A stretch of DNA of 64,000 nt from a virus (Duplodnaviria > Caudoviricetes), in the IMG/VR virus record IMGVR_UViG_3300011952_000001, positions 771-64,770 of that record, one strand, 5' to 3'. Shown piece after piece: positions 3,142-46,155 of this stretch. Position 1 is the stretch's first letter. Every line of letters begins with the position of its first letter. The position numbers and the translations under genes were made by a program. Under the pieces are notes generated by a model. It ran no database searches, had not been told where the DNA came from, and saw nothing but the letters and a program-made list of their open reading frames with translations.

Positions 3142-4728
3142 ATCGGATTATTTAGAAAAAAAGATGCAGACATGCTCGAAACAGGAACAGTCACATATAC
3201 GTATGACGCATTTAAGCCAGGCGAGCAATTTCCGCCAGCAAACGCAATTGAACGAATTTCAAAATACCGTCGTCTGAAAAAGTTATATGACGGTAAACAA
3301 GCTGAACTGTATGAAAGGGCAACCGCGCTTTTAAAAGATACTCCTCACGCTAAACAGTTACAGACGTTATATATTGCGGCCAATATTGCAGACATAATTG
3401 TAACAAAGCCGTCAGATTTACTCGTTGGTGAACCGCCAATCTTCGATAGCGGATTAGCAGATGACACTCCGCAACAAGAAGCAATTAACTCTTACGTTGA
3501 GGAGAACGATTTATCACAACTAATTCACGAGTCAGCACTTGCTAACGGTTATCGCGGAGATTCTTGGATTAAAGTCCGATATGATTATCGCCAAGACTAC
3601 AGCGCATTGACTTTGAGAGGGTTGCCAATTCCAGATGACGCCGAGATGGAGCCTATTATCGAGCATGTCGCAGCAGATTGTGTATTCCCAATCACGAGTG
3701 ACGGTAACGTTAAGAAGTTTAAGTCAGTTGTTATCGCAAGTGTCGAGTGGGTAGTTTCGCAGAAAGAGGAAACTCCGTACCTAAACGTTGAGCACCACCT
3801 ACCAGGATATATCATTAATGAGCGATATAAACTTACGACCTACGAAGGCGGAGTCGACAACACGTACGGCTATCCAGTACAACTTTTCTTAATCGATAAA
3901 AAGGTAAGCGATAGCGAAATTGTTTCAACTGGCGTTCCGCATTTACTCGTACATCACATTCCGTACAAATCAACGGACGATCAGTGGGAAGGTAAAGGAA
4001 CGTTAGAAGCGCTTGAAACGATTTTAATTGCGATAAATGACCGATTAGCACAGCTCGACTACGTCCTCTGGAAGCACAGTGATCCTACAGCGTATGGTCC
4101 AGAACTAGGTACGGGCAACAATGCACGATTAACCGGCGCTTATATTCCGGTTACTAACGAAGATAAAACGCCAGGCTATATGACTTGGGATGGACAATTA
4201 AACAGCGCCTTTAAGGAGCTGGAAACCTTAATCGGAATGGCGTTCCAAATTGCAGAGACTCCGCAATGGTTATTCGGAACTGTACTCGGCGACCAAAACG
4301 CAGGCGGAACCGGCACGTCACACACGGACGGAGCAGCGATTAAAGCACGCTTTATGCCAATCCTAACGAAAGTTGCACGTATTCGAACGCACTACGACCG
4401 CGCTTTACGAGATGCGCTATATAACTGCCAATTACTCGATATTGCGCATGGTGACGCTAATTTCACGCCAGTATATCCGGTGATTCATTGGCAAGACGGA
4501 CTGCCACATAGCGAGAAAGAACAGGCCGAAATCATGGCGATTCGTACTGGCAACAGACCGACGATTGACCAGGCGACGGCGATTAAGCGTATGGACGGAG
4601 TAGATGATATTCAAGCCGCAGAAATCATGGCTAGAATCGAAGGAGATATGGAGCGAGAGGTTGGCACCGTAACATCATCGATATTTAACGAAGAAGTAGA
4701 GGAAACAATGGAGGAGGCTGACAGTTAA
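3142..4728 (+). CDS. Portal protein (SPP1 gp6-like); start uncertain
   Basis: ORF 3088..4728, position after terL, size ~530 aa. The strong RBS AAAGGAGG (3125-3132) is 9 nt before an in-frame ATC at 3142; next ATG is at 3172. Confidence 0.88.
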   Translation: MGLFRKKDADMLETGTVTYTYDAFKPGEQFPPANAIERISKYRRLKKLYDGKQAELYERATALLKDTPHAKQLQTLYIAANIADIIVTKPSDLLVGEPPIFDSGLADDTPQQEAINSYVEENDLSQLIHESALANGYRGDSWIKVRYDYRQDYSALTLRGLPIPDDAEMEPIIEHVAADCVFPITSDGNVKKFKSVVIASVEWVVSQKEETPYLNVEHHLPGYIINERYKLTTYEGGVDNTYGYPVQLFLIDKKVSDSEIVSTGVPHLLVHHIPYKSTDDQWEGKGTLEALETILIAINDRLAQLDYVLWKHSDPTAYGPELGTGNNARLTGAYIPVTNEDKTPGYMTWDGQLNSAFKELETLIGMAFQIAETPQWLFGTVLGDQNAGGTGTSHTDGAAIKARFMPILTKVARIRTHYDRALRDALYNCQLLDIAHGDANFTPVYPVIHWQDGLPHSEKEQAEIMAIRTGNRPTIDQATAIKRMDGVDDIQAAEIMARIEGDMEREVGTVTSSIFNEEVEETMEEADS

Positions 4729-37181: not shown

Positions 37182-37742
37182 ATGACGCAAAAATTAAACG
37201 TAAGTCTACACGCAATTGAGCGAGCGCGAGAACGCCTTGATGTAAAAGGTACTAACGACAATGTATCGCACACAATTCGCCAATGGTATACGCGAGCAGT
37301 ACGAAAAGGCCGTGATAATGCCAGCGGTATCATCTTCGATAATGTCGCAAAGGACGTCCGCATGATATTAGATGAAACTTGCCAGACGGTTATCACAATG
37401 TACCGCCTAAGTACTGTCGATGAATACGTAGCGCAGAAACTAGCGCCTAAAGTTACGGTTGGCCGTCTTAAGTCTGCGATCCTACGAGAGCTATCACGTA
37501 TGACGACGCAACTTCGACGCGAAATCGGCAAGCTGACGGAACAGCAAGCGCAACTTAACGTAAGCGCCGCAGAACTGACGCTAAACAAGATAAGGTGCCG
37601 AGCACCTCATACGCAAGAGCTAATTCAAACTCGCATTGACGCTATTATAACGCAAGTTGACGACTTAGCGCAAGAGATTGACGCAAAATTAACGCAGATT
37701 AAAAATGCAGAGCGAGAAGTTAACGAGGTGGTTGGCGAATGA
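37182..37742 (+). CDS. Hypothetical protein (possible RelE-like N-terminus plus coiled coil)
   Basis: VSLHAIERARERL motif; C-terminal heptads. Confidence 0.55.
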   Translation: MTQKLNVSLHAIERARERLDVKGTNDNVSHTIRQWYTRAVRKGRDNASGIIFDNVAKDVRMILDETCQTVITMYRLSTVDEYVAQKLAPKVTVGRLKSAILRELSRMTTQLRREIGKLTEQQAQLNVSAAELTLNKIRCRAPHTQELIQTRIDAIITQVDDLAQEIDAKLTQIKNAEREVNEVVGE

Positions 37743-38027: not shown

Positions 38028-39359
38028 ATGAGTATGGCACGTAGAAAAACGCATGAAGAGTTTGTTGCGGAGGTTAGGGCGCTTGTTGGCGATGAATACA
38101 CAGTGTTAGGGACTTATATAAAAGGTAGTACGAAGATAAAAATGTTACATGAAAATTGTAGGAAAGAGTATGATGTCACGCCGCACGGTTTTTTAACAGG
38201 AAGACGTTGCCCTAATTGCCGCACAAACGCAAAAAAGACAACAGAAAAGTTCCGAGAAGAAGTAAGAGCATTAGTTGGGGAAGAGTATATTGTTTTAGAT
38301 GAATATGATGGAGCTGACACAGCAATAAAGATAAAACACATGTTTTGTGGGGCAGTAAACTTGCAAAAACCATCAAACTTCTTAAGTGGAAAAAGGTGCA
38401 AACAGTGTGCAAAAGGAAAGGCAGCGAAAACAAGATTAAAAAATACAGAAAAGATATTTCTTGAAAAAATGAAAACCACAGAGTTTATAGTGGTATCAGC
38501 TTATCGAGGAAGCGACATGCCAGTAACTTTAAGGCATAAGTGCGGACGAGAAGTTGTAGTTAATGCAGCGTACACTTCGAAAGTGTTATGTCCGAGATGC
38601 ACAATAAGTCATTCAAAAAAACTAAATTCAAGTGATTTTAGAGAGTATATAAAAGAGACTAGAGGATCTGAGTATGAATTACTTGGTGAGTACACTAATG
38701 CGCACGAAAAAACAGCTATAAGACATATAAGTTGTGGATTTGTATGGCATGTCACTCCAAGTAAATTTAAAGAAGGTACTAAGTGTCCAAAGTGTGCTAA
38801 AGTTCTACCGTTATCCTCAGATAGATTAAAAGAATTCATCAAAGAAGTAGGGTTGTCAGATGAATATCAGGTTTTAAATGAATTTGATAGTGGGAAAGTA
38901 GAGGCGATTTTATACCACAATACTTGCGGAAGTTCATATAGCACAAAGGCGATCTATTTTAGAAGAGGAAGCAGGTGTCCGGTTTGTAATGAATCTAAAG
39001 GAGAACGTGCTATAAGAGTGTTTCTACAGAGGAACTACGTAAAGTTTAAAGCGCAAGAACCATTAGAAGGATGCGTTGATAAACAACCTCTTCCGTTTGA
39101 TTTTGTTATTAAGAACCACAATCAGATTTTAGCGATAGAGTTTGACGGAGAGGAACATTATAAACCTATAGAATTTTTTGGTGGACTTAAAAAATATGCA
39201 GACAGAACGAGAAAAGACGCAATAAAAACGCAATATTGCGCCGACAACGGAATACCTCTCATACGCATACCGTATTGGGATTTCGATAATATCGACGCAA
39301 TATTAACGGAGAAATTGTTGCCGTTAATTAAACATACCACGAATCGTAAAATCGCTTAA
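38028..39359 (+). CDS. Zinc-ribbon-repeat protein with C-terminal Vsr-like / PD-(D/E)XK nuclease (homing-endonuclease-like)
   Basis: Five ~60-aa repeats (EY..LG.Y......I...H..C......P..F..G.RCP.C); C-terminal SKGE..I...L, LPFDF, IEFDGEEH, LIRIPYW. Confidence 0.82.
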   Translation: MSMARRKTHEEFVAEVRALVGDEYTVLGTYIKGSTKIKMLHENCRKEYDVTPHGFLTGRRCPNCRTNAKKTTEKFREEVRALVGEEYIVLDEYDGADTAIKIKHMFCGAVNLQKPSNFLSGKRCKQCAKGKAAKTRLKNTEKIFLEKMKTTEFIVVSAYRGSDMPVTLRHKCGREVVVNAAYTSKVLCPRCTISHSKKLNSSDFREYIKETRGSEYELLGEYTNAHEKTAIRHISCGFVWHVTPSKFKEGTKCPKCAKVLPLSSDRLKEFIKEVGLSDEYQVLNEFDSGKVEAILYHNTCGSSYSTKAIYFRRGSRCPVCNESKGERAIRVFLQRNYVKFKAQEPLEGCVDKQPLPFDFVIKNHNQILAIEFDGEEHYKPIEFFGGLKKYADRTRKDAIKTQYCADNGIPLIRIPYWDFDNIDAILTEKLLPLIKHTTNRKIA

Positions 39360-39972
39360 TAGCAGTGTATCCAACTACGTTTATAATCGTATCAATTTCA
39401 CGGTGAGGATATTCAGTAGTGTCATATTTAGCACTAATTATTTCATGCGTATGTTTGGACGTTGTACCGAATTTATCGTAAATATCCCGCAATAATCTGG
39501 CAAGAAAGTCAGGACTTAGTTTCATAATACGATCTGCTAAAGTCTTTTCTTGAAATTCATTCCTAGGCTTACTGCTTCTGCGAGACTTTAATTTATTTTT
39601 TCGTATAAGAAATTCGTCATAAGATTTGATATCTCCTTTGATTATCTCTTGCCTTAAACTCTCGTCAGTTGTTGGGCTTATTACAGCATAGCGAAGATTG
39701 CCCCCTAAAGAGTCAAGGCTCATCTGGACGTCAAAAGGTAAAGAGTAATAATTATCAGCGTACTTTCTAAATTTTAAAGCTCGATTATTCGGAATGTTAG
39801 TCAACTTAACGAATTCGTCATACCTATCCGGAATTTCCTCAAAAACTTGATTTAATATTCGTCCAAGGAGGATATGGTCAGATTTATCGGATTCTAAAAA
39901 TATGTTGTATAAATTATCAAACATAACAAAACCCCATATTCGGTTAGTAAAATGTGGTGTAAGGATGGTCAA
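39328..39972 (-). CDS. Hypothetical accessory protein, weak DUF3102-like N-terminal pattern
   Basis: AT-rich ORF; ILLGRILNQV...YDEFVKLTNIPNNRALKFRKYA; likely ATG start at ~39924. Confidence 0.55.
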   Translation of the reverse strand: MTILTPHFTNRIWGFVMFDNLYNIFLESDKSDHILLGRILNQVFEEIPDRYDEFVKLTNIPNNRALKFRKYADNYYSLPFDVQMSLDSLGGNLRYAVISPTTDESLRQEIIKGDIKSYDEFLIRKNKLKSRRSSKPRNEFQEKTLADRIMKLSPDFLARLLRDIYDKFGTTSKHTHEIISAKYDTTEYPHREIDTIINVVGYTAIKRFYDSWYV

Positions 39973-39984
39973 TAATCAAGAAGA

Positions 39985-40359
39985 TCAATTCTCGAAATGT
40001 TTGCGAATTTTAGCAGGTAACTGCGTAGTATCAGCAGTATCGTAGTAATTAAACGTGTCAGCTAATAGGGATGCAAAGTCTTTGTAAGAATCTAGGATTT
40101 TGTTAAAAGCCATAACATCGACTTGAGGGTAGGACTGTATTAGCTTAAACGGTAAAAGTCGCGAATACACAATTAAATCGTATTCTAAATCAATAAGATC
40201 TTGCTTTCCAGGGTCTTGGTTTTTCTTAAACGCAGTAGCGTACTTCTCTAGTCTTTCCAAGATAGAACCAATAAATTCAATATCTCGTTTTTCCGAAAGC
40301 AAAATAAGCGCATCTCGCATTACAGTGTCTTGGTTATGGTCGTGGATCATTTTAGTCAT
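39985..40359 (-). CDS. Hypothetical accessory protein (helical)
   Basis: RBS GGAG; own promoter TTGACA-18-TATAGT at 40433-40404. Confidence 0.62.
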   Translation of the reverse strand: MTKMIHDHNQDTVMRDALILLSEKRDIEFIGSILERLEKYATAFKKNQDPGKQDLIDLEYDLIVYSRLLPFKLIQSYPQVDVMAFNKILDSYKDFASLLADTFNYYDTADTTQLPAKIRKHFEN

Positions 40360-40559
40360 CTCCGTAAATTAGTTTTGGCACAGCGCTGTTGTCCTTGCCT
40401 AAAACTATACGCAGACGATTTTCAGAATGTCAAGCGATAATTTTAATCGAATTTACGCAGTAAATTTTACCATGCGCATACACACGTATAGGCGAGTAAT
40501 AACGCAATGCTGACGCTAATTTGAATTTCGTAATGGCTACGAAGATATTCCGCACAAAC

Positions 40560-40970
40560 TTCGTCCGTCCTATCGAGCGCAGACCGTGTCGCCCGTTAGT
40601 AAGTCCGCCGCCTGGTGCGGATTTGAAAGCGGTCGGCATCCGGAACGGTTTCTGATTGCCTCGACGCCAGTCTACGGAAACGCAACGGTGAGAACGACTG
40701 ATAATCGTTCAAGATACGTTCGGGCTGTCGTAGAGGAGCGCGCCAATCGGACGCTCGATAGGGCGGTACGAATCGTCCTTGACGCCGATCCAGTCATCGG
40801 CAACTGACGCCTTCAGGCGGTTTCACTTATCAACTGACAGCGGCGAGTTGACGCTGTCAGTCGGTAAATGCGTCCGTTATGCCCATTCGCTTTAATGCGG
40901 TCATCATTCCGACTGCACCTACGAAAAGGCAGCGAGGGCTCGTACGGTAACGGGCGCATTTACGGACGGT
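40560..40970 (+). ncRNA. Large multi-domain structured RNA (unidentified family)
   Basis: 18-bp helix 40562-40579/40752-40770; 15-bp helix 40865-40879/40948-40962; perfect 10-bp hairpin 40833-40861; several nested hairpins; G-U pairs favour the + strand; GC-rich with no RBS-backed ORF. Confidence 0.78.
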
Positions 40971-41028
40971 GATTAAGACGTTGCGTAACGCAAACCATCC
41001 GAAACAATTACGAAGCGAGGCGGTACAA

Positions 41029-41259
41029 ATGGCGAATACAAAGGCAGAGGTATTAGCGGAGATTATCGCTTATAGTGGCGAAATTTATCGCGCAAATGAA
41101 AGTATCGAACACCTCTTAGAGCAACTATTTATGGCGAAGGAACAAGTCGCTAATATTGAGCAGAACATCGAAGAAAAGGAATCGGCAAGTGAGCGAGCAG
41201 AAGCGCTGTTAGGTGTAGCTGCAGCGCAATTAGCGAAATTAAACGCAGAAGGAGCGTGA
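41029..41259 (+). CDS. Small coiled-coil protein
   Basis: ATG 41029 behind GAGGCGG; first gene after the ncRNA. Confidence 0.65.
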   Translation: MANTKAEVLAEIIAYSGEIYRANESIEHLLEQLFMAKEQVANIEQNIEEKESASERAEALLGVAAAQLAKLNAEGA

Positions 41260-41263
41260 TTGA

Positions 41264-41368
41264 ATGAGATTTATCGACCATGTACGGAAAGTAACGGCGG
41301 AGACTCCGCAAAACAAACTGACGAAGGCGCAGCAAAGACTGATTCGTGCGGTAGCTAACCGGAAATAG
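41264..41368 (+). CDS. 34-aa basic peptide
   Basis: MRFIDHVRKVTAETPQNKLTKAQQRLIRAVANRK; RBS AAGGAG. Confidence 0.5.
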   Translation: MRFIDHVRKVTAETPQNKLTKAQQRLIRAVANRK

Positions 41369-41426: not shown

Positions 41427-42170
41427 ATGACTCAATTTACAAACGGAATGGACGCATTAAACGCACTTAACGAAACGAACGATGGCGGAAGCAGTCGCGA
41501 ATTTACTTCGCTTAAATCTGGCTCGAAATATATCGTTCGTGTAATCGATAAAGCTGCAGTTCAAATGGCGTATAGCTACGGAATTTTTAAGCAAATCAAT
41601 TCATTTGTCGCAAAGGAGCCGTCAACTAAATCGCAGAAAGGCTACCCAACAGCGAATTTGACGCCGTGGGATAAAGCGTGGAAGTATCACAAGGATTTAT
41701 CGAACGACTTTAACGATGAACACGGACAAGAGGCGAGCAAGTATCGCGCTAAGGTTCGATTTGCTATGGCGTTCTTTGACCTCGATCAAGGCGAATATAT
41801 CATCGTTGATGTATCGAAGAAACAGGCGCAAGCAATCGCTGCAGTCATCGCCAAGAACGAGAAGAAGCTCGGCAATAAAGCGTTCGAACTCGAAAAGGTC
41901 GGTACGGGAACGTCAACGAGCGTAATGCTGTCGCCATTAGACCTTGATGATTTAACGGACAAGCAACGCGCTAACTTCGATAAAGCGCCAGCCGAATTTG
42001 ACCACGCTATATTTGACGGCATTTGGTACGAGCAGGACGAAGCACAACAAGTCGCTCTACTCCGTCAAGCGGGCTTCGATGTAACGAAGATTGGTTATAG
42101 CGCTGCGCCGGATGCGGCTGAAACTGGCGAAGATACTCCGAATGAGGACGAAGAACCTTTACCGTTCTAA
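41427..42170 (+). CDS. Single-stranded DNA-binding protein (T4 gp32-like, putative)
   Basis: FTSLKSG...VRV pattern; acidic C-terminal tail ending EDEEPLPF. Confidence 0.72.
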   Translation: MTQFTNGMDALNALNETNDGGSSREFTSLKSGSKYIVRVIDKAAVQMAYSYGIFKQINSFVAKEPSTKSQKGYPTANLTPWDKAWKYHKDLSNDFNDEHGQEASKYRAKVRFAMAFFDLDQGEYIIVDVSKKQAQAIAAVIAKNEKKLGNKAFELEKVGTGTSTSVMLSPLDLDDLTDKQRANFDKAPAEFDHAIFDGIWYEQDEAQQVALLRQAGFDVTKIGYSAAPDAAETGEDTPNEDEEPLPF

Positions 42171-42190: not shown

Positions 42191-42601
42191 ATGACGCAAA
42201 ATGCAGAAAGCGCACAATTAAGCACAAGCACAATCGGACGTCACTCGGAACTACTCGCAATGGCTGCGTTATTAGCGGATGGCTGGTCGGTATCAGAGCC
42301 GACCGTGCCGGAAGCGCACGATTTGCTGGCGGTAAAAGGCGAGCAGTCATTACGGATACAAGTCAAGACGATTAAAATGCGCGAGAAGTCAGGGCGTCCG
42401 TATTACGTTATACGCGGTCTGAAAAATAGTGGTCAAGCATACGACACTACGGATTGCGACGTATTTATCGGAGTTGTAGGCGAACACGTCTATATGACGC
42501 CATGTACGGGATTGACGGATTACTGGTGCGGAACTGACGAAGCAAGCGAGAAGTGGCGTTACTTACCATTAAAAATTACGGAAAAGGGAGCGATTAATTA
42601 A
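42191..42601 (+). CDS. PD-(D/E)XK endonuclease (PDDEXK_5 / I-Ssp6803I-like)
   Basis: GRHSEL...G..VS.P......DL......RIQVKT...Y...DCDVFI. Confidence 0.8.
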   Translation: MTQNAESAQLSTSTIGRHSELLAMAALLADGWSVSEPTVPEAHDLLAVKGEQSLRIQVKTIKMREKSGRPYYVIRGLKNSGQAYDTTDCDVFIGVVGEHVYMTPCTGLTDYWCGTDEASEKWRYLPLKITEKGAIN

Positions 42602-42602
42602 T

Positions 42603-44006
42603 ATGGCGAAATTAAACGTTAAAGTTTTAGATATGCAAAACGGAGAAATTACGAAGGTTGCGTATGAAGGTGCGGAGTATGCGAAGGTCGAGAGTAATGC
42701 TTTAATCGGAGATTTAGCGCTTTGCGTAAATGAGACGCCGTTCTTTACAGTCGGAGAATTTTATTTAGCGTGGGATTTATACGAAAATGGCGAACCTCGA
42801 ATGAAAGACGATGCTGACGATAACTACCAAATGAGACAAGGAACGTACGTATTATTCCGCAAAATCTCCGCAGACAAGCCAACGTTAGAGCAGAGAGTAG
42901 AGACGTTGGAGAGCGATGTTGCTGCGTTGAAGGGCGAGAAGGAAGCATCGTCTATTCTTGCAGTAGGTGAACGGGTTTATACTAGCGGAAGTTCAAAGTG
43001 GGGACGTGACTGTGACGGTAAAACAGGCACAATCGAAGAAAACGACTTAAATAACGGTCATTACTACGTGCAATTAGACGATGGTCGGGGCGTTTATTTG
43101 AAACCGACGCAAGTTAAGAAGTTCGAAGAAACTATCGAATTTGAAGGCGCAACATATTGCAAAGTTGAGCGTGAGGCTCGCGAAGGGGATGTCGTGATTA
43201 GTAACGCAAAATCATCTAGTTTTGTAACTAAAGGAAAACCGTACAAAGTTACGAGTAGCGATGGAGATTTGATTCTAAACGGAGGCACCTCGCATGCAAT
43301 CGATCTTTATAATGTAGGACGCACACGTGAAACTGTCGACGTTTATGAGCCGATTGAGCAGGCGAAATATGTTCCGAAAGAGGGCGATATTGTCGTGATT
43401 ACGGGGAATACGTCTAGTCACACAAATAGCATCGGAGATATCGGAAAAGTCGGCAAGGAGGAGCCGTTAGATGACGGTGGAGTTAAAGTTTATGTACCCG
43501 GAGGTCCGTTGTGTGCAATCCGAACAAAACCTTGCGATATCCGCAAAGCAACGCCAGCAGAAGTCGAAAAATACGAGCAGGCGATGAAAGACGCAAACAA
43601 GCCGAAATTAAAGGCGGGCGATTACGTTAAGATTACACGCGAACTTTCACATTACGACAATAACGGAGCATATGAAATTGTAGAGAAAAACGGAAACTTA
43701 GGCGTAATTGATGAAGATGGCGACTTTAACAGCGGCGCTATTACTGCAGGCGAATACGAAATTGTTGATGCTGAAACGGCAAAATGGGCGAAGATTGGTC
43801 GTAAGCCTAACGAGTTTAAGAAGGGCGATGTTGTGCGAGTGCTAGGCGTATGTAGTGGACATGAAATCGCTGGTCAGTTAGGAGAAATCGTAATCGCAGA
43901 CGGAACAGATCAACCGTCAGTACGCGCTGTATATAATGACGAATTAATCGAGTTATGGACTCGCGTAGAACTTGTAGCGCCGGTAGAATCGCTATTCAAC
44001 GCATAA
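42603..44006 (+). CDS. Multi-module hypothetical protein with repeated SH3/KOW-like units
   Basis: Repeated (K/V)xGDxVx(I/V) units: VGERV, REGDVV, KEGDIV, KAGDYV, KKGDVV. Confidence 0.65.
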   Translation: MAKLNVKVLDMQNGEITKVAYEGAEYAKVESNALIGDLALCVNETPFFTVGEFYLAWDLYENGEPRMKDDADDNYQMRQGTYVLFRKISADKPTLEQRVETLESDVAALKGEKEASSILAVGERVYTSGSSKWGRDCDGKTGTIEENDLNNGHYYVQLDDGRGVYLKPTQVKKFEETIEFEGATYCKVEREAREGDVVISNAKSSSFVTKGKPYKVTSSDGDLILNGGTSHAIDLYNVGRTRETVDVYEPIEQAKYVPKEGDIVVITGNTSSHTNSIGDIGKVGKEEPLDDGGVKVYVPGGPLCAIRTKPCDIRKATPAEVEKYEQAMKDANKPKLKAGDYVKITRELSHYDNNGAYEIVEKNGNLGVIDEDGDFNSGAITAGEYEIVDAETAKWAKIGRKPNEFKKGDVVRVLGVCSGHEIAGQLGEIVIADGTDQPSVRAVYNDELIELWTRVELVAPVESLFNA

Positions 44007-44037: not shown

Positions 44038-46155
44038 ATGAAGCTCGATATTAAACTGAAAAGCGCAACGGCTTCCGCCTCAACCGAAGCCTTGCGTGAG
44101 GCAAGCAAACGGAAAGCTAGCGCTAATGAAACGATGGAGGACGCTTGGGCGCGTATATTAAAGCAGAAGAATAGCGATGCTGACTTGCGAAAGTTGCGAG
44201 AGGTTAAGCGTGCTATGGACGCAGGGCTAATCGGAAGGGAAGCAGATAAAGCGACTAAGCGATTTAGCAAGGCGGAGGCTATTCGATTGTATGCGGTACT
44301 ATTCGAACAGCAACGCGAAGGAAAGCTGGCGGAATTAGTCGCAAATACTCCGAGCAATTACGTGTTAGTTACCGATGAACAAGCGTTAAAGCAAGTCGTA
44401 GCCGACGCATTAAAAGAGCCGATCATTGCGGTTGATACGGAGACAACCGGATTAGACGTATATGTTGACGTGATTGTCGGTGTATCGCTGACGCTTCCTT
44501 CTATCGATAAGCACTATTATATTCCGTTTGAGCCGACGCAAGATGAACGCGCTTTGCCTTCGGAAAAGATTGACGAGCTTAAGCCGTTGATGGAATCGCA
44601 GTCTGTTGCGAAGGTATTGCATAACGCGCTGTACGATAAGGCGATGTTTGAGCGACATGGAATAAAGTTGAACAGCGTTGTTTGGGACACAATGAGCGCA
44701 ATGCACGTTCTTAACGAGAACGAAGCGTCCTATGCACTTAAAAACTTAGCTACAGCGTATTTAAACGAGCCAAGCGATACATTCTCGGAACTATTCGGAC
44801 GTGACGCGAAGTTCGCTGAGGTTCCACTAGATGTTGCGCTAGTATACGCAGCGAAAGATACGGATTTAACCTGGCGCATGTATCAGTTCCAGCTAAAACA
44901 CTTATCGAAAATGCCGACGGTGCTGGATTATTACAGACGCGTTGAAGTTCCGCTGATGTACGCAGTATACGATATGGAGCGTACAGGCTTCGTAATTGAC
45001 GCAAAATATGCGGAAGAATACGGCAAGCAAATGAGAGAGGAGATTGACGTTCTAGAGGCAGAGTTAACGACGGAGTTAAACGTCGAAAACATTAACTCGA
45101 ATCAGCAGCTTAAGCCAGCGCTTGAAGCGTATATAGGCGAGCAGTTGCCAAATTTAGATGCTAAGAAAACGTTGAAACCACTAAAGAAAAAGCACGCGAT
45201 CATAGCGAAGTTGCTTCGTTATCGTGAATTAGCGAAGTTGTACTCGACGTATATTAGCGTTTTACCTGAAAAGATTCATCCAGTTACAGGCCGACTTCAC
45301 GCCAGATTCAATCCGAACGGGGCGAGAACTGGTAGATTTTCAAGTGGAGGTAACGGCGTGAATTTGCAAAACCAACCGCATGCAGCACGACGATTATTCA
45401 AAGCACCAGAAGGATGTGTCATTATAGGCGGAGATTTCAGTCAACAGGAAGTGCGATGCGCAGCCTATTTTACGAACGAACCAGTATTAAAGACAGCATA
45501 CGCAGAAGGCAAAGACGTCTACTCTTCGCTAGCAAGCGAGTTTTACGGAAAGCCGTACGAGGAATGTGGCGATGGAACTTCGGAACGTAAAGCGATGAAA
45601 GTCGTTGTACTTGCGGTTATGTACGGCATGGGACCGGGTGCACTGGCAGATATGCTCGATATTCCAATAGACGAGGCTAAACGATTCATGGCTGATTTCT
45701 TCGCTAAAATGCCACGCATTCAAGCATGGATTAACGAGACTCAAGCGTTCGCCAAAAAACACGGTTATGTATGGATGGATGGTGAACAGCGAAAACGTCG
45801 ATTACCAGAGGCAAAGCGCAAGGTAAGAGGCTATGATCCAGAAGTCAGCAGAGCATTACGGCAAGGCCCAAATGCACAAATACAAGGAACTTCCGCTATA
45901 CAAGGGAAGGTTACGTTAATAAACTTGCATGAATTTTGTAAGCGCAAAGGATGGCAGCTATTCTGTGTAGTCCATGATGAAACTTTAGTCCTAGCTCCGG
46001 AGGATTTCACACGAGAGGATTTAGCTGAGTTCGAACGAATAATGCTTGAAAGCTATACGTTTGGTGATGTTAAGAATAAAACAGATATCGAGGTTTCACG
46101 AATTTGGGGTGAAGGTGTTTCGCCAGAGGAGTGGTTCAGTGTCGAAGGAAATTAG
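44038..46155 (+). CDS. polA: DNA polymerase family A with 3'-5' exonuclease
   Basis: AVDTETTGL, HNALYD, YAAKD (exo I-III); GRFSS..NLQN, GGDFSQQE (A), KVVVLAVMYG (B), VVHDE (C). Confidence 0.96.
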   Translation: MKLDIKLKSATASASTEALREASKRKASANETMEDAWARILKQKNSDADLRKLREVKRAMDAGLIGREADKATKRFSKAEAIRLYAVLFEQQREGKLAELVANTPSNYVLVTDEQALKQVVADALKEPIIAVDTETTGLDVYVDVIVGVSLTLPSIDKHYYIPFEPTQDERALPSEKIDELKPLMESQSVAKVLHNALYDKAMFERHGIKLNSVVWDTMSAMHVLNENEASYALKNLATAYLNEPSDTFSELFGRDAKFAEVPLDVALVYAAKDTDLTWRMYQFQLKHLSKMPTVLDYYRRVEVPLMYAVYDMERTGFVIDAKYAEEYGKQMREEIDVLEAELTTELNVENINSNQQLKPALEAYIGEQLPNLDAKKTLKPLKKKHAIIAKLLRYRELAKLYSTYISVLPEKIHPVTGRLHARFNPNGARTGRFSSGGNGVNLQNQPHAARRLFKAPEGCVIIGGDFSQQEVRCAAYFTNEPVLKTAYAEGKDVYSSLASEFYGKPYEECGDGTSERKAMKVVVLAVMYGMGPGALADMLDIPIDEAKRFMADFFAKMPRIQAWINETQAFAKKHGYVWMDGEQRKRRLPEAKRKVRGYDPEVSRALRQGPNAQIQGTSAIQGKVTLINLHEFCKRKGWQLFCVVHDETLVLAPEDFTREDLAEFERIMLESYTFGDVKNKTDIEVSRIWGEGVSPEEWFSVEGN

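Follow-up and report, generated by a model that had tools for sequence, protein, structure and literature searches.

A folded RNA family upstream of gp32-like single-stranded-DNA-binding protein genes in temperate Bacillales phages, predicted to act as an operon leader

What is a GC-rich, folded intergenic block doing at the head of a phage replication operon? The question arises at positions 40560–40970 of a 64,000-nt stretch of DNA (the window), which covers positions 771–64,770, nearly the whole, of the 64.8-kb IMG/VR virus record IMGVR_UViG_3300011952_000001. From the letters alone, an original prediction had described this block as a multi-domain structured RNA heading a single-stranded-DNA-binding protein (SSB)/polymerase operon, and had proposed either a new phage noncoding RNA (ncRNA) or a large cis-regulatory leader. 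The analysis reported here confirmed that the block is a genuine RNA fold, conserved and specific to one strand, whose family is absent from Rfam, and it supported the proposed pair of roles, with the leader favoured.

A conserved, strand-specific folded RNA

The block lies in a 670-nt gap between two − strand open reading frames (ORFs, 39328–40359) and the first + strand ORF, which starts at 41029. Its GC content is 0.54–0.58, compared with 0.33–0.41 in the left-hand genes and 0.40–0.53 in the right-hand genes; the contrast is one-sided, on the left only, and the AT-rich surroundings described at first hold for that side alone. The minimum free energy (MFE) of 40560–40970 is −188.2 kcal/mol on the + strand (z −6.4; 0 of 100 shuffles equal it) and −171.6 kcal/mol on the − strand (z −4.9), and the + structure mirrored onto the − strand is 15 kcal/mol weaker. 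The + fold contains 140 pairs, 12 of which are G·U, in keeping with the G-U pairs noticed earlier. Apart from small coordinate corrections, the helices of the block are present almost as they had been listed.

MFE folding and RNAalifold both give a first domain on the + strand, D1 (40560–40773), which is a three-way junction. Its P1 helix (40561–40579/40752–40771; 15+4 bp, with one bulged U and one U·G) retains the long helix with one bulge of the original prediction, with revised coordinates and extent. P2 occupies 40582–40650, and its apical helix lies at 40600–40608/40617–40625, not at 40597–40604/40617–40624 as first placed; a GAAA tetraloop, also proposed, does not form in the predicted fold. 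P3 (UCUGAUUG/CAAUCGGA; 40651–40658/40744–40751) bears a variable branch that includes the hairpin at 40692–40710, in which GAACGA pairs with TCGTTC as expected (40692–40697/40705–40710). In an asymmetric bulge just 5′ of the P3 3′ strand sits the palindromic hexamer GCGCGC (40738–40743); the aligned site reads GCAUGC in L009 and GCGCGC in Sporosarcina phage Lietuvens (L-numbers are labels for the related loci gathered in the analysis), and we hypothesize that the hexamer could serve as a self-complementary contact. RNAalifold of D1 from the window, L238, L002 and L009 gave 36 pairs, 11 of them changed on both sides and spanning P1, P2 and P3.

D1 is followed by a linker (40784–40861) with three small hairpins at 40784–40801, 40808–40819 and 40833–40842/40852–40861, the last of which is the perfect 10-bp stem that had been predicted. 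The second domain, D2 (40860–40968), is likewise present, with its closing helix moved to 40860–40880/40947–40967; this helix comprises 17–21 bp and contains a G·G mismatch (GUC-G-GU / AC-G-GAC). The D2 interior holds two small hairpins, and a 7-nt bulge, UCGUACG (40940–40946), includes the palindrome CGUACG. Between D2 and the first ORF lies a weakly structured spacer of 60 nt (40969–41028), in which that ORF's ribosome-binding site and a small hairpin (UUGCG-UAA-CGCAA) are found. The repeated CGTCCGT does occur at 40562 and 40871, with ACGGACG at 40962, as originally seen; the partner chosen by the MFE fold, however, is a third copy, CGTCCTT, at 40773, and ACGGACG(G) at 40962 is able to pair with 40562, 40772, 40860 or 40871.

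Homologues of the whole element were matched by nhmmer in L002 (E 2e-124), L009 (2e-71) and L238 (7e-11), and part of D2 was matched in L003. The plan is the same throughout, namely a domain closed by a long helix, a linker and a second closed domain, and the folding z-score was −5.3 in both homologues tested. At the P2 position of D1, L002 and L009 have an unrelated hairpin of equal length, while the sequence on either side is all but unchanged (window 40588–40637 vs L002:3459–3507, flanks ~95–100% identical); this cassette-like replacement suggests recombination or diversifying selection on the hairpin. The linker hairpins and much of the module interiors are not conserved: the linker is shifted in register in L002, and in L009 the whole stretch, together with D2, is replaced by other sequences that again form long helices.

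No known family accounts for the block. At gathering score, Rfam 15 matched neither the window at any point nor any of 11 related loci, and for the window this includes GOLLD, ROOL, OLE, HEARO, c4, 6S, Y RNA and riboswitches; in E-value mode, 40300–41100 returned noise only, the best being mir-9198 at 23.9 bits vs a gathering score of 92. ARAGORN found 0 tRNA or tmRNA genes in the 64-kb window. The earlier failure to match the RNA to GOLLD, ROOL, tRNA or tmRNA is thus borne out, and the novelty that a strong Rfam hit would have removed stands. A blastn search with the intergenic region had no match among 50,697 phage records, a 21-mer scan of a metagenome collection gave 0 matches, and exact-pattern scans of IMG/VR with two specific 18–20-mers matched the L002 and L009 contigs only. 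Two further IMG/VR scans were discarded: GAGCRYGCNNATCGGACG occurred at 45 loci, all by chance apart from a locus already known, and the 14-mer TTTACGGACGGTGA had at least 120 matches, mostly by chance, with only L154 and L207 among the matches listed showing a short similar stem, unconfirmed by the covariance model R1 described below. The block holds no conserved ORF; those of 73, 69, 48, 44 and 43 amino acids (aa) have no PHROG match, and a coding reading was rejected because no internal ORF is kept in L002, whose D1 is 48 nt shorter.

Hairpin-closed modules upstream of SSB genes

The region upstream of the SSB gene was compared across ~60 loci, nearly all of which were gathered via the SSB gene. 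What is conserved is a hairpin-closed module and not the 410-nt block; loci have one to four copies of it, and the window has two, D1 and D2. The most conserved part is the closing-helix core, 5′-CGUC-G-G.../...C-G-GRCG-3′, usually with a G·G mismatch and with a conserved U·G, while module interiors vary from ~17 to ~200 nt. Related elements occur at the equivalent place and strand, upstream of a gp32-like SSB gene, in IMG/VR phages, in Lietuvens and in prophages of Lysinibacillus, Psychrobacillus, Oceanobacillus, Bacillus and others.

In type A modules the closing helix is 5′-GCGUC-G-GCUA.../...UAGC-G-GRCGC-3′, where the G·G and the adjacent U·G are conserved and the distal stem covaries freely; a strict descriptor of this helix matched almost solely at the pre-SSB place, on the + strand. 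Covariance model R1, built from 10 short type A examples, gave 24 + strand matches, and the − strand scored 13–25 bits where the + strand scored 60–79. In alignment A6, which is fitted to the model and takes in two − strand rows, 95.4% of cells are paired vs 31–40% with the partners slid, both sides have changed in 12 of 18 pairs, and 0 of 500 shuffles attained the covariation score. The U·G wobble is present in 13 of 22 sequences, and both U·G and G·G are conserved on the + strand only.

Type B modules are closed by CCGUCCGUAAAUG.../...CAUUUACGGACGG-UGA, with either C-G or G·G at the mismatch position, and D2 belongs here. D2, which was also recovered by repeat search, scores 24.1 bits against R1 (40850–40979; E 6e-7 with 1.2 kb searched and filters off) and 21.3 bits in a large search; RNAalifold of D2 and seven B-type hairpins (8 sequences) gave 15 pairs, 7 of them changed on both sides. 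D1 is marginal against R1 (4.7 bits, E 0.25). It is placed in the family because its P3 and AUCGGACG junction are also found in Lietuvens domain B and L101, both R1 matches, and we regard it as a diverged module copy whose P1/P2/P3 junction is backed by four homologues.

The type C domain, ~115 nt long, consists of P1 with a G·G mismatch, P2, P3 and an invariant internal loop, GUUARGUAA. RNAalifold of 14 sequences gave 33 pairs, 23 of them covarying, and the corresponding model R2 had 28 + strand matches (27–140 bits) and a single, marginal − strand match (13 bits, E 0.42). Helices covary in A6, type C, D1 and D2; a lack of covariation had been named at the outset as an argument against a functional RNA. 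In several leaders a type A module comes after type C. Type C is placed 34–40 nt before the SSB start in prophages and phages of Bacillus, 268TH002 among them (L014:3355–3484, L089:2856–2984, L107:2859–2987, L005:3849–3966 and ~24 more loci). The domain has no Rfam match and suggests itself as a separate candidate for an aptamer or protein-binding motif. The window itself lacks type C, its best R2 score being 3.4 bits (E 1.1, filters off); 'GUUAGUAA', common to D1 P2 and type C, is probably a coincidence or a remnant, and type C membership of the window was rejected.

R1 matched one place per 4–5 Mb bacterial genome and, within the Lietuvens genome, the pre-SSB region alone; an RNA-first search with R2 of 151 sampled Bacillales genomes gave 1 match, at L068, a locus known before. 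These counts mark the element as rare, phage-borne and locus-specific. A rough tally of long helices in the pre-SSB region came out alike on the two strands (0.93 vs 0.92 per kb), and strand specificity follows from the covariance models and the G·U pairs, not from that count.

In Lietuvens (L013, MT104122), an unannotated gap of ~800 nt at the equivalent position contains three or four hairpin-closed domains, the arms of which are near-identical 19-mers, four forward and three reverse, within 700 bp. Its domain B has the motif GAGCGCGCnnAUCGGAC in common with D1 of the window, and the P1 sequences differ in a compensatory way. At 2652–2905 of this phage, 127 bp are also duplicated exactly and in tandem, and the 3′ end of the annotated ORF57 and one module arm fall within the duplication. 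ORF58 is annotated from L013:3357, 144 nt upstream of the point where similarity to the SSB family begins (3501), and its first part (3357–3500) overlaps the last RNA module; the sequence indicates that this start is probably annotated too far upstream. Two other observations concern the region ahead of the modules. The motif GCCGRC, often as AAGCCGGCA just past a stop codon, occurs upstream in several relatives (L060:2848–2868, L003:2818–2840, L008:3740–3760, L013:2687–2708, L101:2396–2418) and can pair with the type A 5′-arm core GUCGGC; the G that the long helix leaves mismatched would then be paired in a small alternative hairpin. Two divergent phages have a long perfect hairpin with the common loop GUUUAGGCAUUAC (L004:3148–3185, L005:3428–3476) right after a gene of ~210 aa that precedes the leader and whose 268TH002 copy is annotated as a sigma factor; this hairpin could be a terminator or a regulatory hairpin.

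A predicted leader and its alternatives

With modest confidence, we favour reading the block as a predicted cis-acting leader of the SSB/PolA operon that would control translation, processing or stability. Selection for pairing on the + strand, orientation in the sense of the operon and a fixed distance to the ribosome-binding site together argue for an RNA acting in cis. At ~30 loci the last module ends 34–62 nt before a start codon (median 43), and the spacer is A-rich (mean AU 0.58 vs ~0.44 in the modules) with a folding energy of −1 to −12 kcal/mol. The window has 60 nt between D2 and its 76-aa ORF, and L002 and L009 have 53 nt before a 34-aa ORF. The next start codon is that of a small ORF in the window, L002, L009 and L115, and that of the SSB gene in ~30 relatives. 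In many relatives a module directly follows the stop codon of the upstream ORF, so that it is intercistronic and not 5′-terminal.

In the window, the element heads a rightward unit because the genes upstream of it are on the − strand. The ORF56-like gene at 37182–37742 is homologous to the Lietuvens gene that stands just before the leader gap of that phage. Compared with Lietuvens, the window has gained, between this ORF and the leader, an HNH/homing-type endonuclease gene (38028–39359, phrog_559) and two − strand ORFs of no known family; L002 and L009 carry other − strand cargo at the spot of window 38028–40359. Since the − strand genes and the endonuclease are inserted upstream, the rightward transcript must start within 40360–40560. 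This divergent regulatory region (40360–40559) is ~95% identical in L002 and L009. A promoter scan identified a strong leftward promoter, TTGACA-18-TATAGT (40433–40404, − strand), which serves the two − strand ORFs. On the + strand, a weak candidate was read from the sequence, TTGAAT (40521–40526), 17 nt and GATATT (40544–40549), which would start the RNA ~3–5 nt before P1. The leader RNA would accordingly be drawn from ~40556 to the start codon at 41029, heading the rightward early operon of a temperate Bacillales phage in the order two small ORFs, gp32-like SSB, PD-(D/E)XK nuclease and PolA.

In the proposed mechanism, the module would be a cis-acting structure in the mRNA, recognised by a protein and thereby setting how strongly the SSB operon is expressed; the fixed wobble and mismatch give the conserved core of the helix the look of a site bound by a protein. 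Our modest confidence in the leader is divided roughly evenly between two sub-mechanisms, neither of which fits clearly better than the other. The module might be an operator of the T4 gene 32 type, in which a stable structure would nucleate or bound cooperative SSB binding on the unstructured spacer containing the ribosome-binding site, and the outcome would be autogenous translational repression. Alternatively, the ~20-bp, mismatch-punctuated helices might be substrates of the narrow-specificity Bacillus RNase III, or barriers to RNase J1.

Several points weigh against the leader. No + strand sigma-A promoter in 40360–40560 reached the scan threshold, and the SSB association is partly a matter of ascertainment, since the loci were found through the SSB gene. 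Two small ORFs and ~460 nt part D2 from the SSB start in the window, so that a direct gene 32-type operator at the SSB ribosome-binding site misfits this phage without translational coupling. The T4 operator, moreover, is a small pseudoknot and not a domain of 100–400 nt. The conserved P3, the AUCGGACG junction and the palindromic bulges would be superfluous in a simple RNase III site or exonuclease barrier. The small intervening ORFs thus weaken the operator, and the conserved interiors weaken the processing site as a full account.

In another reading, which we think unlikely, the element would be a stable trans-acting or self-assembling ncRNA: cuts, perhaps within the ~20-bp closing helices, would release the modules from the leader to act as RNA particles, and exposed palindromic hexamers would give symmetric RNA-RNA contacts, dimers or larger assemblies, as in OLE, ROOL and GOLLD. 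Conservation does reach beyond the closing helix to P3, the AUCGGACG junction and the motif 'CGUAAAGG', and the exchange of P2 between the window and L002/L009 inside near-identical flanks would suit such an RNA. At aligned or structurally equivalent unpaired sites, one palindrome is also exchanged for another: the hexamer of B-type modules switches among GCCGGC, GCUAGC and GUGCGCAC, that of D1 between GCGCGC and GCAUGC, and the 7-nt bulge of the D2-type subdomain between CGUACG (window) and CCGCGG (L003), and the same signature backed symmetric kissing loops in OLE and GOLLD (PMC12286853). Unpaired palindromes of 6–8 nt were recorded at equivalent sites in the window (40738–40743, 40941–46), L009 (1706, 1922), L071 (2911), L238 (1378–1385) and L241 (153), together with the L003 bulge GCCGCGG. 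However, the palindrome argument is post hoc and draws on few independent lineages (a rough estimate of p is ~2e-4, allowing for positional slack); overall, the elements have no excess of palindromic hexamers (17 seen vs ~16 expected), the structural alignment of the window and L003 bulges was not reproduced by MAFFT, and the hexamer is absent from D1 of L002 and from L115, L059, L087 and L250. An interior range of ~17–200 nt would be unusual for a particle with a defined architecture. No intrinsic terminator was found between the element and the ORFs in the window, and this, with the conserved spacing to the next start codon, is why a leader is preferred over a free ncRNA. A leader could itself be a modular self-associating RNA, each module exposing a 6–8-nt palindrome through which at least two RNA copies would pair symmetrically; we put this forward tentatively, as a doubtful possibility. 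If it were true, the two modules per molecule would allow the window RNA to form chains or closed assemblies, the element would be a small mRNA-embedded relative, in kind and not in ancestry, of the RNA-only assemblies OLE, ROOL and GOLLD, and transcript concentration might be coupled to expression of the phage SSB and polymerase genes.

A role at the DNA level, as a replication origin or other site whose + strand folds as single-stranded DNA or whose repeated arms are bound by a phage protein, is improbable. The element stands at the head of a replication module, the 19-nt arm of Lietuvens (four direct and three inverted copies within 700 bp) is iteron-like, and DNA hairpins tolerate G·T pairs. 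Yet the two closing helices of the window differ in sequence, and because each covaries with its own partner, selection has been for pairing and not for a repeated protein site. Nor does a DNA site explain why the U·G and G·G are conserved on the + strand only, with far lower − strand scores, why the orientation always matches the downstream genes or why the spacing to the next start codon is conserved; an AT-rich unwinding tract is also missing. Most improbable of all is an immunity or relay switch of the P4 CI or P1 c4 type, in which mutually exclusive arm pairings would let a processed piece or an alternative fold terminate or block the replication operon. The alternating forward and reverse arms of Lietuvens can form a chain of mutually exclusive hairpins, ACGGACG(G) at 40962 of the window has its four possible partners, the upstream GCCGRC of several relatives can pair with the GUCGGC core, and the element adjoins a divergent promoter region. 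Against these stand the lack of a terminator-like structure hinging on alternative pairings, the length of the alternatives (6–8 bp vs 17–30 bp for the main helices), the absence of GCCGRC from many members, the window included, and a fold with no likeness to an RNase P substrate. The cis-acting leader of the SSB/PolA operon thus remains the reading we favour.

Gene setting and comparison with known systems

The operon does encode a gp32-like fold and PolA, as the term 'SSB/polymerase operon' implied, but it opens with two small ORFs (41029–41259 and 41264–41368) before the SSB gene at 41427. The first encodes 76 aa of no known family, predicted by eye to be helical. L002 and L009 lack it, their element directly preceding the 34-aa ORF instead, and relative to them it is an insertion. 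Short repeats border it, namely TACGAAG..ACAAA at 40538 and 41009, and GGCGGTACRAAT at 40762 and 41019. The second, a 34-aa ORF (MRFIDH...) read from the sequence, also follows the element in L002, L009 and L115. The SSB gene (41427–42170, phrog_6883) encodes a 247-aa protein with an acidic tail ending in LPF, whose terminal Phe is invariant. This protein has no Pfam match, and its profile had no significant match among PDB sequences. Its AlphaFold2 model (predicted local distance difference test 78) retrieved the RB69 and T4 gp32 cores (2a1k, 1gpc) as the top Foldseek matches (probability 1.0, E 2e-4, template-modelling score ~0.4), so the product is classed as gp32-like from comparison of the modelled fold alone. 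Downstream on the + strand are a PD-(D/E)XK nuclease (42191–42601), a 467-aa protein (42603–44006) and a family A DNA polymerase (PolA, 44038–46155), which make up the rest of the replication/recombination operon. Relatives of the SSB are found in Lietuvens, Bacillus phages phi18-2 and 268TH002/007, Listeria P70-like phages, prophages of Lysinibacillus capsici (74% identity), Psychrobacillus, Lederbergia, Oceanobacillus, Virgibacillus and others, and on many IMG/VR and metagenome contigs.

As kinds of RNA, structured leaders and phage ncRNAs are both familiar. New here is a family absent from Rfam, conserved mainly via its closing helix and attached to gp32-like SSB operons of temperate Bacillales phages. 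Its design is unusual in that the closing helix has a fixed wobble and a G·G, the interiors are free to grow from ~17 to ~200 nt, and modules are duplicated in tandem. Cultivable members include Sporosarcina phage Lietuvens, Bacillus phages 268TH002 and phi18-2 (type C) and prophages in sequenced strains.

Among known systems, P4 CI and P1-P7 c4 are alike in having repeated complementary segments in the leader of a phage replication or antirepressor operon, by an immunity-type divergent promoter region; the c4 family is in Rfam, however, and was not matched here. GOLLD and ROOL are likewise phage-borne, large and multi-helix, and the possible covariation of palindromes resembles that backing their kissing loops (PMC12286853); if it does reflect RNA-RNA contacts, natural RNA self-assembly would extend to an mRNA leader. 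In contrast to these RNAs of 500–800+ nt, typically near tRNA islands, the present element is ~410 nt (units of 50–215 nt), has no match to their covariance models, lies in a window without tRNA and occupies an mRNA leader position.

RNase III cuts conserved hairpins in T7 and SP82 early mRNAs, and the B. subtilis enzyme, which is of narrow specificity, cuts SP82 phage mRNA sites (PMC4838370). The modules resemble the T7 R and SP82 sites in their ~20-bp helices broken by a conserved mismatch or internal loop, in their intercistronic or leader place in early transcripts, in the related copies within one phage and in the Firmicute host. P1 (15+4 bp), the D2 helix (17–21 bp with G·G) and the family helix (18+ bp) all have the form of such substrates, double-stranded helices of about two turns that often contain an internal mismatch. 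Unlike those sites, the modules enclose large, partly conserved interiors and occupy one locus per genome instead of being spread along the early region. The family lets one ask whether the phage substrates of Bacillus RNase III include a conserved class.

Alternatively, it lets one ask whether the logic of T4 gene 32 autoregulation exists beyond T4-like phages. The gp32 proteins of T4 and RB69 are autogenous translational repressors that act via a structured operator followed by an unstructured tract, and the gene 32 operators of related phages diverge in sequence while their structure is kept (PMC535899). The present modules, of 50–215 nt, hairpin-closed and often in several copies, have no sequence or structural homology to these operators, and in the window the element is parted from the SSB gene by two small ORFs. 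The arrangement is nevertheless alike: a structured RNA upstream of a gp32-fold SSB gene, and then an A/U-rich, weakly structured run to the ribosome-binding site.

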